Assembly: GCF_001677475.2 (NCBI RefSeq)
Contig: NZ_CP015229.1
Reading direction: 5' to 3' (one strand)
Origin: Escherichia coli
GTDB taxonomy: Bacteria > Pseudomonadota > Gammaproteobacteria > Enterobacterales > Enterobacteriaceae
DNA: 64,000 nt
The translations under genes and the position numbers were made by a program. Positions 36,866 to 38,107 of the stretch are shown in pieces. The notes beneath the pieces were generated by a model. The model was given only the letters and a program-made list of their open reading frames with translations. It made no database searches and was not told the DNA's origin. Position 1 is the first letter of the stretch. Every line of letters starts with the position of its first letter.

Positions 36866-37174
36866 TCACTTCAACATGGATGAGAAAAGAACAATACCCG
36901 GGATAATTGCCCTTGTTGCGCTCATTTTCTCTTCCAGATCCAGCTTCCGCTGATACAGCGTGTTCTCGTCGGATAAATTGCTGGCATCGAGTTTCCCCGC
37001 GATAGATATTCTTCGCAGGCGATCAGTGTTAGGTATCGCGATTAACACTTCCAGATAGTCAGAAAGTAACCCAATGATTTCAGGTGGCACTTCCCCATTA
37101 TCCAGATCCATATCACGTAAATTAGCCAGATATGACACATTCAGCGGGTATATATGACCAAGTAAATTATTCAA
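36866..37174 (-). CDS. hypothetical protein (PmgC-like position); true start may be an internal ATG
   Basis: Track ORF whose 5' end overlaps the repeat-containing junction region. Confidence 0.35.
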
Positions 37175-37310
37175 GATAACCGGGAAGAGATTAAAAAAGA
37201 CGGGAACAGATTGGAATCAATAGGTTAGAAACTACCGATATTCAAGATAAAACGGGTTAAAAATGCTCAATACGTCAATATCGATAAAACATTCAAGATA
37301 GGCGCGCCGT
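37165..37310 (+). repeat. three direct copies of ATTCAAGATA(A) spaced about 72 and 51 bp, at the P1-like/Mu-like junction
   Basis: Copies start near 37168, 37240 and 37291, same orientation, each followed by a G-rich stretch. Confidence 0.5.
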
Positions 37311-37400
37311 GTTATTTCAAGCCTTTTAAGCCCCTTCAAAAATGCCCGCATCTCCTTTTAAAGCGAATTTTAAAGAAGCTCCAAAAGCAGGTCAATTAAG

Positions 37401-37916
37401 TCAACCTGCCTTTGCTTTTACGCTGTGTGAGAGAATACTTGCTTCAATTTCTTCCAAAATCTCTCTGACTTGCTCGTCGGACATATCAACCAACATCAAT
37501 GCAGCCAGGCGTTTACGACCCTCTAGTTGCAGCAGTTCTTGAGTATCTTTGTCCAATAAGCGTAGTACCGTTTCAACGCCTTTCCTTGCGAACATGCTGG
37601 TAAGAGCCTCTCGTTCTTCACTAGTAAGAAACGAGAGCATCTCAGTTAGCTGATCGCCTTGACTTAAACTGCTTTGTGATTCTTGTATTTTTGGTGGGTT
37701 TCCGTTGCCTGTTTTTAACCATTCAAGACTAACACCTTCACTTTCTGCAATGCGTACCAATATGCTTTCTCGAGGTTCTGGTGTGTTTCCCTTTTTAAAA
37801 TAGCTTTGTAACGTATTGATATTTATTCCCCAGGCTCTGGCTGCAGCACTTCTTGATGGATACCGTCTAATAAGATATGCCATGCGCTCTACGATAGGTT
37901 CTTTTGCTTGCTCCAT
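37401..37916 (-). CDS. Mu-like prophage repressor (c-like), N-terminal HTH
   Basis: Leftward gene divergent from ner/A/B; HTH-like segment RSAAARAWGININTLQSY. Confidence 0.6.
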   Translation of the reverse strand: MEQAKEPIVERMAYLIRRYPSRSAAARAWGININTLQSYFKKGNTPEPRESILVRIAESEGVSLEWLKTGNGNPPKIQESQSSLSQGDQLTEMLSFLTSEEREALTSMFARKGVETVLRLLDKDTQELLQLEGRKRLAALMLVDMSDEQVREILEEIEASILSHSVKAKAG

Positions 37917-38107
37917 AAAAGTACCTCTAGGTATTTTTCTGCATAAAGGTTCTTTTCCATCTATCTAATTGAATAGAAAGGAAAATTCAAAAATACAAAC
38001 AAAATACAAAAAATACCTTGTAATGGTACTTTTTGTGATCTACGATTTTATCCATACGGATATCCGACCGGATATCCGCGCGGGTAACTTTGTAGGGTAA
38101 AGGAAAG
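37917..38107. promoter_or_regulatory. divergent early promoter/operator region with tandem palindromes CGGATATCCG and AAATACAAA repeats
   Basis: Two copies of the 10-bp palindrome separated by 2 bp just upstream of ner. Confidence 0.5.

Follow-up and report, generated by a model that had tools for sequence, protein, structure and literature searches.

Phage Mu (NC_000929) carries its genes in the order c / ner-A-B-kil-gam...mor...lys...head...tail...com-mom, with L1, a spacer and L2-L3 at its left end and contiguous R1-R3 at its right end. The termini of Mu, like those of the Mu-like prophage of E. coli KFu019, read TG...CA and are accompanied by a 5-bp target duplication. According to a 2021 survey (PMC8705779), every Mu- or B3-like phage known by then had terminal TG-CA; the same survey reported TA-TA ends, new at that time, together with 6-bp duplications in transposable prophages of Leptospira. 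Natural insertion of a Mu-like phage into another temperate phage is likewise on record: in the Stx-converting phages LC727881 and LC727895, a Mu-like phage whose A gene is ~80% identical in nucleotide sequence to the one described below is nested in a chromosomal lambdoid prophage, whereas the host element described below is a P1-like plasmid prophage.

Here we analyze a 64,000-nt stretch of E. coli DNA (contig NZ_CP015229.1; the whole stretch is referred to as the window) in which P1-like sequence passes directly into a Mu-like element (Table 1). The reading that we consider highly probable is that a ~34–35 kb Mu-like phage inserted by DDE transposition in pmgC of a P1-like plasmid prophage, duplicating the tetranucleotide TATA; the plasmid is of the IncY kind, and its closest intact relatives are typed IncY.

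Table 1. Features of the P1-like segment and the Mu-like element, in window coordinates.
Feature	Coordinates	Strand	Evidence
P1-like prophage/plasmid segment, darB ... tub, pmgC'	1..37152		blastn against NC_005856; megablast to P1, P7, SJ46 and IncY plasmids
tub, P1 major tail tube gene, nearest intact gene on the downstream side of the break	36244..36855	-	matches P1 tub, 45388-45999
3' half of pmgC, ~codons 95-188, severed from start codon and late promoter LPsit	36866..37152	-	P1 annotation; PHROG profile
TATA, left copy of the 4-bp target-site duplication	37149..37152		comparison with intact P1, CP099272 and sibling right junctions
Mu-like prophage, left 26.8 kb of an estimated 34-35 kb, runs off the window	37153..64000	+	92-96% identity to VL40 prophage
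Left end (attL), terminus 5'-TA at 37153, three TTCAAGATA repeats	37153..37300	+	shared with 11 other flanks; repeat scan
Terminator-like hairpin and T-run, overlapping repressor 3' end; function putative	37382..37414	-	consensus scan
Repressor, c-type, 171 aa, transcribed towards the left end	37401..37916	-	phrog_3037, E 8e-53
AT-rich divergent control region between repressor and ner; presumed operators and early promoter	37917..38107		position; repeats/palindromes; analogy with Mu
Ner-like early regulator, 83 aa	38108..38359	+	phrog_769, E 2.5e-23; 35% identity to Mu Ner
Transposase A, 698 aa, DDE, Mu-transposase C-terminal domain	38361..40457	+	phrog_310, E 3e-196
MuB-like AAA+ transposition ATPase, 317 aa	40533..41486	+	phrog_296, E 1e-87; 41% identity to MuB

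P1 homology stops at a single base. In a local blastn comparison of the whole window with NC_005856, positions 1-37152 are collinear with P1 nt 11639-46296 at 94-98% identity, the collinearity being broken only by local replacements and an IS, and positions 37153-64000 give zero P1 matches. P1-like gene order and sequence collinearity, the features by which membership in the plasmid family is recognized, thus extend over 1-37152; the genes for plasmid maintenance and the lytic replicon (repA/parAB, repL, phd-doc) fall outside the window. Alignment against P1-family genomes, which the preliminary description of this DNA had proposed, gives the same endpoint: in a megablast search with window positions 34000-42000 against collections of phage genomes, plasmids and complete E. 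coli genomes, every P1-family record (P1, P7, SJ46, RCS47 and the IncY plasmids) stops matching at 37152, and Mu-like prophages of E. coli chromosomes match from 37152/37153 on. The gap between the two segments is 0 bp; chromosomal DNA separating them, named at the outset as a sign that they might be unconnected, was looked for and is absent.

The endpoint lies within a gene. P1 pmgC occupies P1 nt 46010-46576 on the minus strand, and homology ends at P1 nt 46296, that is, inside pmgC, of which the window retains only the 3' 287 nt. The leftward, 102-codon ORF at 36866-37174 consists of this 3' half of pmgC preceded by six leading codons contributed by the Mu-like end, and its residues 7-97 match positions 93-183 of the 183-position PHROG PmgC profile. 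An AT-rich stretch of 230 bp separates this ORF from the leftward ORF at 37401-37916. The tail block is cut in mid-gene, with no gene boundary at its end. The preliminary description was right that the tail operon meets the left end of a Mu-like phage here, but placed the meeting point after the operon rather than inside pmgC and let the tail block run to ~37,170 rather than to 37152.

The P1-like segment also shows several local departures from the P1 reference. An IS21-family element (istA, 499 aa; istB, 251 aa) occupies 13725-16134 in the homologue of P1 ddrB, with P1 nt 25318-25323 present on both sides of it, so that the P1-like backbone is disrupted by insertion a second time. At ~23021-27341 the invertible C segment of P1, which carries the tail-fibre S/U genes, lies in the orientation opposite to that of the P1 reference and is more diverged, at 89-94% identity. 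Two intervals, 10087-10748 (isaA region) and 11527-12647 (the place of IS1 and isaB in P1), are without P1 counterpart, and their ORFs had no NCBIfam match.

The left terminus of the Mu-like prophage starts at 37153, with the sequence 5'-TATGACCAAGTAAATTATTCAAGATAACCGGG. The junction in the window reads GGGTATA|TATGACC, and the uninterrupted site, both in P1 and in CP099272, reads GGGTATA^CCGCTCG. Comparison of the window with the copies in RM9088 (inserted at the 3' end of nrfA) and FDAARGOS_943 shows that the shared sequence begins with TATGAC and that the DNA to its left is unrelated. By combining alignment with P1 and two chromosomal copies, pattern scans of IMG/VR and exact-protein look-ups, we find the terminus next to 12 unrelated left flanks (P1 and 11 others in E. 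coli genomes), in each case at exactly the same base. The terminus, which the preliminary description had recognized as present in this interval without being able to place it, is thereby fixed at 37153. An alternative start two bases further in, at the TG at position 3, was considered and rejected: because the intact P1 site reads GGGTATA^CC, the TA that adjoins the flank cannot be target DNA. All copies start with TATGAC and finish with GCTTTA, in place of the canonical terminal 5'-TG...CA-3'. A degenerate pattern spanning both ends gave no match in GTDB representatives.

The sequence TTCAAGATA occurs at 37170-37178, 37241-37249 and 37292-37300, corresponding to L1, a spacer, and L2 plus L3, and occurs three times more, inverted and closely spaced, at the right ends. 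These copies are putative transposase-binding repeats, in the arrangement of Mu at both ends. Counting from the first T, the end-proximal repeat covers positions 18-26 at either end, a register that we take to be that of the Mu ends.

The genes behind the left end are those of a transposable phage. The preliminary description had reported a Mu-type early region beginning within 250 bp, with the repressor directed leftward and ner, A and B rightward, and PHROG profile matches bear this out, so that the element has a DDE transposase A and a MuB-type ATPase behind a divergent repressor/ner switch. The second feature characteristic of transposable phages, integration at a variety of unrelated positions accompanied by duplication of a few target bases, is seen in the 12 left flanks and in the five pairs of flanks described below. 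In sibling loci, the 698-aa product at the transposase position carries domains PF09299 and PF02316, and PF09077 is likewise found there on a product of matching length and position. In the window, the transposase ATG overlaps the ner stop. A longer ORF starting with GTG at 38292 was set aside as an ORF-calling artefact. Kil and Gam follow B, and the element as a whole contains early, semi-essential, lysis, head and tail genes, including sheath, tube and tape-measure genes of its own at ~57.8-62.0 kb.

The late region (~45.5-64 kb) has 58% GC. Of 5426 complete E. coli genomes, 97 contain prophages that match it at ~95% identity; these matches, 124 in total, lie on chromosomes without exception, and none is on a plasmid. 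The repressor and A are exact matches to recorded proteins, and the lengths of the Mu-like genes in the window equal those in other copies. The exact repressor protein is found in E. coli at both P1 and chromosomal sites. Position 64000 falls in tail genes, in agreement with the earlier statement that the other end lies beyond the window, and comparison with the VL40 copy (34,619 bp in full) puts the right end near the equivalent of window position 71-72 kb. Judging from the gene lengths and the exact matches of the repressor and A, the inserted Mu-like prophage is probably functional, with its last 7-8 kb lying beyond the window.

If a Mu-like phage inserted in pmgC, the other half of pmgC should be present beyond its right end. 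To search for this junction we predicted a fusion ORF consisting of PmgC residues 1-94 followed by 16 codons from the right end, assuming a 4-bp duplication and taking the PmgC allele from the closest IncY plasmids. The predicted 110-aa PmgC/right-end fusion protein is on record, exactly as predicted, in nine contigs from sibling E. coli assemblies; the version built with the PmgC allele of the P1 reference is not on record. The fusion protein is flanked on one side by mom/com and on the other by an SH3-domain gene, ant, kilA and repL, the SH3-domain gene occupying the place of simC in the IncY lineage. Beyond the right end in the siblings, P1 resumes with the 5' half of pmgC. The DNA of the sibling right junction reads ...GCGCGCTTTA|TATACCGCTCG, with P1 resuming after the 4 bp TATA (in a longer reading, GCGCGCTTTA|TATACCGCTCGATGAG, with the terminus GCTTTA|TATACCGCTCG), and right ends of this transposition module read ...TATCTTGAATAATTTTGCGCGCTTTA. 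The results support the earlier proposal of a transposable phage inside a P1-like genome, since P1 homology runs to 37152, the Mu-like terminus is at 37153 and P1 resumes on the other side in siblings. With respect to the P1 sim region, which had been suggested as the DNA to look for beyond the element, the siblings do return to P1, with 5' pmgC, ant, kilA and repL, but carry the SH3-domain gene where simC would stand.

The length of the target duplication was determined from copies for which both flanks are available. All five paired copies have 4-bp duplications: TAAG in RM9088, TTCA in VL40, GATA in an IMG/VR contig, GAAA in FDAARGOS_943 and TATA at the P1 site. Duplications of 5 bp or 6 bp were rejected, the fifth base disagreeing in four of the five pairs, and a 5-bp duplication would yield a 95-aa product rather than one of 110 aa. 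The 5-bp duplication that the preliminary description anticipated is thus replaced by one of 4 bp, TATA, in the sibling assemblies, and the duplication of the copy in the window would, by comparison with those assemblies, which have an identical left junction, be TATA as well. Two further look-ups did not extend the set of P1 right junctions: an exact look-up with VL40 Mom returned chromosomal right ends only, and in a look-up with the DNA-circularization protein of the window all contigs broke in or before the tail-fibre genes and none reached the right end.

As a separate observation, many contigs of the sibling drafts (loci L022-L029 and L039-L047) though not all, break ~4.5-5 kb inside the left end, and contigs break also within the tail-fibre genes or ahead of them. 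A possible reason is that the strains in question have a further Mu-like prophage, or P1 tail-fibre homology, with the same segments.

The composite recurs. The repressor look-up returned the identical 40-nt P1 flank together with the terminus in at least six other assemblies (loci L022-L024, L026, L027 and L029). Left and right junctions (L027 and L050, respectively) occur together in one sample, GCA_018683295.1. A contig of 136,480 bp is on record as carrying the fusion protein WP_244585986.1 (E. coli); its length agrees with that of an IncY P1-like plasmid (~98–100 kb) together with the IS21 element and one Mu-like copy. Because the left junction recurs in at least six assemblies and a 136-kb contig carries the fusion protein, we conclude that a plasmid lineage in circulation carries a simple insertion and that the arrangement did not arise in assembly.

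The competing explanation that survives best, although it is improbable, is that replicative transposition fused a P1-like plasmid to the chromosome, leaving P1 between two Mu-like copies, in which case the copy seen here would end in chromosomal DNA and not in the other half of pmgC. Fusion of replicons is an established property of Mu and counts in favor of such a cointegrate, the P1 junctions of which would be identical to those of a simple insertion, and the right end lies beyond the window; in addition, the same element, with an identical repressor, is found at chromosomal sites in other strains (L020, L021 and L025). However, contigs in at least six assemblies cross from P1 over the terminus and 4.5-5 kb into the element, and right-junction contigs likewise extend from P1 into mom and com. 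The junction contigs are mostly <30 kb, and so probably derive from short reads; if so, they would be expected to break at the terminus in a genome with two copies of the ends in different flanks. Contigs that cross the termini by several kilobases thus argue against a second identical copy in those genomes, and hence against a cointegrate. Moreover, the 136,480-bp contig with the fusion protein corresponds in size to the plasmid with a single insertion.

That the window is a chimera, in which an assembler joined two unrelated replicons, is extremely improbable. Junction-spanning records number zero in INPHARED, PLSDB, complete RefSeq E. coli genomes, IMG/VR, JGI metagenomes and GTDB representatives (the exact left junction being absent from IMG/VR, JGI metagenomes and GTDB representative genomes, and a gapped pattern of the predicted right junction finding no match in metagenomes), as a chimera would predict, but the break falls exactly on the biological terminus of the element, at least six samples gave the same junction in independent assemblies, and a reciprocal junction with a target duplication exists. 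The recurring left junction, the fusion protein and the reciprocal right junction refute an assembly chimera.

Equally remote is the proposal of a P1 x Mu-like hybrid formed by homologous recombination, or of a tail block that is the Mu-like phage's own: P1 and Mu do have the S/U tail-fibre genes and cin/gin homology in common (P1 annotation notes), but the junction is far from those shared segments and coincides with a transposon terminus and a target duplication, and both versions are refuted by the right-junction duplication and by P1 collinearity over all 37 kb leftward, the Mu-like element encoding its own tail genes, as a check of the ownership of the tail block, raised at the outset, confirmed.

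We therefore return to simple insertion in pmgC and consider what it would mean for the P1-like element. According to the P1 annotation, LPsit, at P1 46608-46626, just upstream of pmgC, is the late promoter upstream of pmgC-tub-pmgB-sit-pmgA-bplA-16, and the next annotated late promoter is LPs, upstream of R and S. The insertion is predicted to place ~35 kb between LPsit and the tub-16 genes. The P1 headful is ~100–115 kb. In the sequence of events that we propose, a Mu-like phage would have transposed into pmgC, with the 4 bp TATA copied on both sides; the insertion would have split pmgC and parted tub, pmgB, sit, pmgA, bplA and gene 16 from LPsit; the replicon would have grown to ~136 kb, above the headful; and the P1-like element would no longer make viable particles and would persist as a plasmid with a probably intact Mu-like prophage. 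Because the tail genes are cut off from LPsit, pmgC is halved and ~136 kb exceeds the headful, the P1-like element is most likely locked in as a plasmid, with phage function presumably lost. Read-through or internal promoters could still express the P1 tail genes, and the role of pmgC in the P1 annotation is given only as "putative morphogenetic".

The likely outcome is that another P1-like phage has been disabled and is maintained as a plasmid, and the nested insertion is in itself ordinary, being of a kind already on record in the Stx phages: transposable phages insert wherever they happen to land, other prophages not excepted. A ~136-kb plasmid with a seemingly intact Mu-like phage nevertheless circulates among several E. 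coli isolates, and Mu-type rearrangements and replicon fusions can readily arise from such a composite. What is unusual is less the junction than the non-canonical termini and the 4-bp stagger, for which comparison with described phages is informative.

Comparison with Mu shows the same gene order and the same end architecture, with similarity that changes abruptly along the element. Amino acid identity to the Mu counterparts is 25% for A, 41% for B, 35% for Ner and 85% for Kil; the semi-essential region is ~85% identical in nucleotide sequence; and BLASTP of the repressor against Mu c gave no match. Megablast matches to Mu and D108 cover only window 41.5-44.1 kb, although the query reached back to 34000, and the c-ner-A-B region and the late region have no megablast match in Mu. 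The element has TA...TA termini and a 4-bp duplication versus TG...CA and 5 bp, and lacks three features of Muvirus: a 5-bp duplication, a MuA-type transposase and genome-wide nucleotide similarity. The low identity of A to MuA and a repressor unlike Mu c accord with the earlier characterization of the element as a divergent Mu-like phage without the canonical Mu left end.

The nearest relatives are the chromosomal prophages of VL40, RM9088 and FDAARGOS_943, which are of the same element type, with a matching left end, TA...TA termini and 4-bp duplications. VL40-type prophages have A at 96% and B at 97% amino acid identity and a late region at 92-98% nucleotide identity (92-96% for the VL40 prophage against the element overall), and differ in chromosomal location and in the repressor allele, which is 41-46% identical in amino acid sequence. 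Among phages outside this type, the transposase is most similar to that of Yersinia phage vB_YpM_5 (MT374853; 81-82% identical), followed in tblastn by Mannheimia phage 3927AP2 (44%) and a large group of Pseudomonas Mu-like phages (JBD30, MP22 and others; ~31%). vB_YpM_5 has the same terminal frames, TATGA.GAGGTAAAT... on the left and ...TTTTGCGCGCTTTA on the right, with inner end repeats TTTGATAC where the window element has TTCAAGATA; its B is 99% identical to MuB, and its late genes are of Mu type with a G segment, as opposed to the 58%-GC module of the window. It is an isolated, plaque-forming Mu-like phage (PMC10434027), and because it forms plaques with the same terminal frames, a phage with TA ends is viable. 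The record of vB_YpM_5 presents a "circular" genome in which ~80 bp of unrelated DNA bridge the right and left ends (positions 4654-4733 of our extract L019); these ~80 bp are presumably packaged host sequence, and the record not a true circle. The Leptospira prophages with TA-TA ends reportedly have B3/Tn552-type transposases and duplicate 6 bp, versus 4 bp here, and their host is unrelated.

The most direct comparison is with KFu019. The KFu019 prophage is 95% identical to the window from position 42693 onward, and has MuA at 98% identity, TGTATTG...GCTTCA ends and a 5-bp duplication, ACCAT. Because a prophage ~95% identical from 42693 has a transposase 98% identical to MuA and Mu ends, we conclude that the element is mosaic and that the ends, the repressor, ner, A and usually B are exchanged as a cassette among otherwise near-identical phages. 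The combination in vB_YpM_5 is a different one: the A type of the window (81%) is joined there with MuB at 99% and Mu-type late genes. We tentatively suggest, while judging it slightly the less probable outcome, that the inserted element represents an undescribed enterobacterial Mu-like transposition module, with a transposase ~25% identical to MuA, cleavage at 3'-TA in place of the near-universal 3'-CA, a stagger of 4 bp and not of 5 or 6 bp, exchange as a cassette, and a plasmid vehicle. In the body of literature covered, searches returned no direct report of P1::Mu-like composites or of 4-bp Mu-like duplications, which is weak evidence of novelty, and the papers on the vB_YpM phages and on SuMu leave the ends undescribed. 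If the suggestion is correct, landing in a P1-like plasmid would give the module a stably partitioned, addiction-protected vehicle. Near-identical late genes joined to two modules, one with TG...CA and 5 bp, the other with TA...TA and 4 bp, provide a natural comparison for asking which transpososome features determine the dinucleotide at which cleavage occurs and the stagger at the target.
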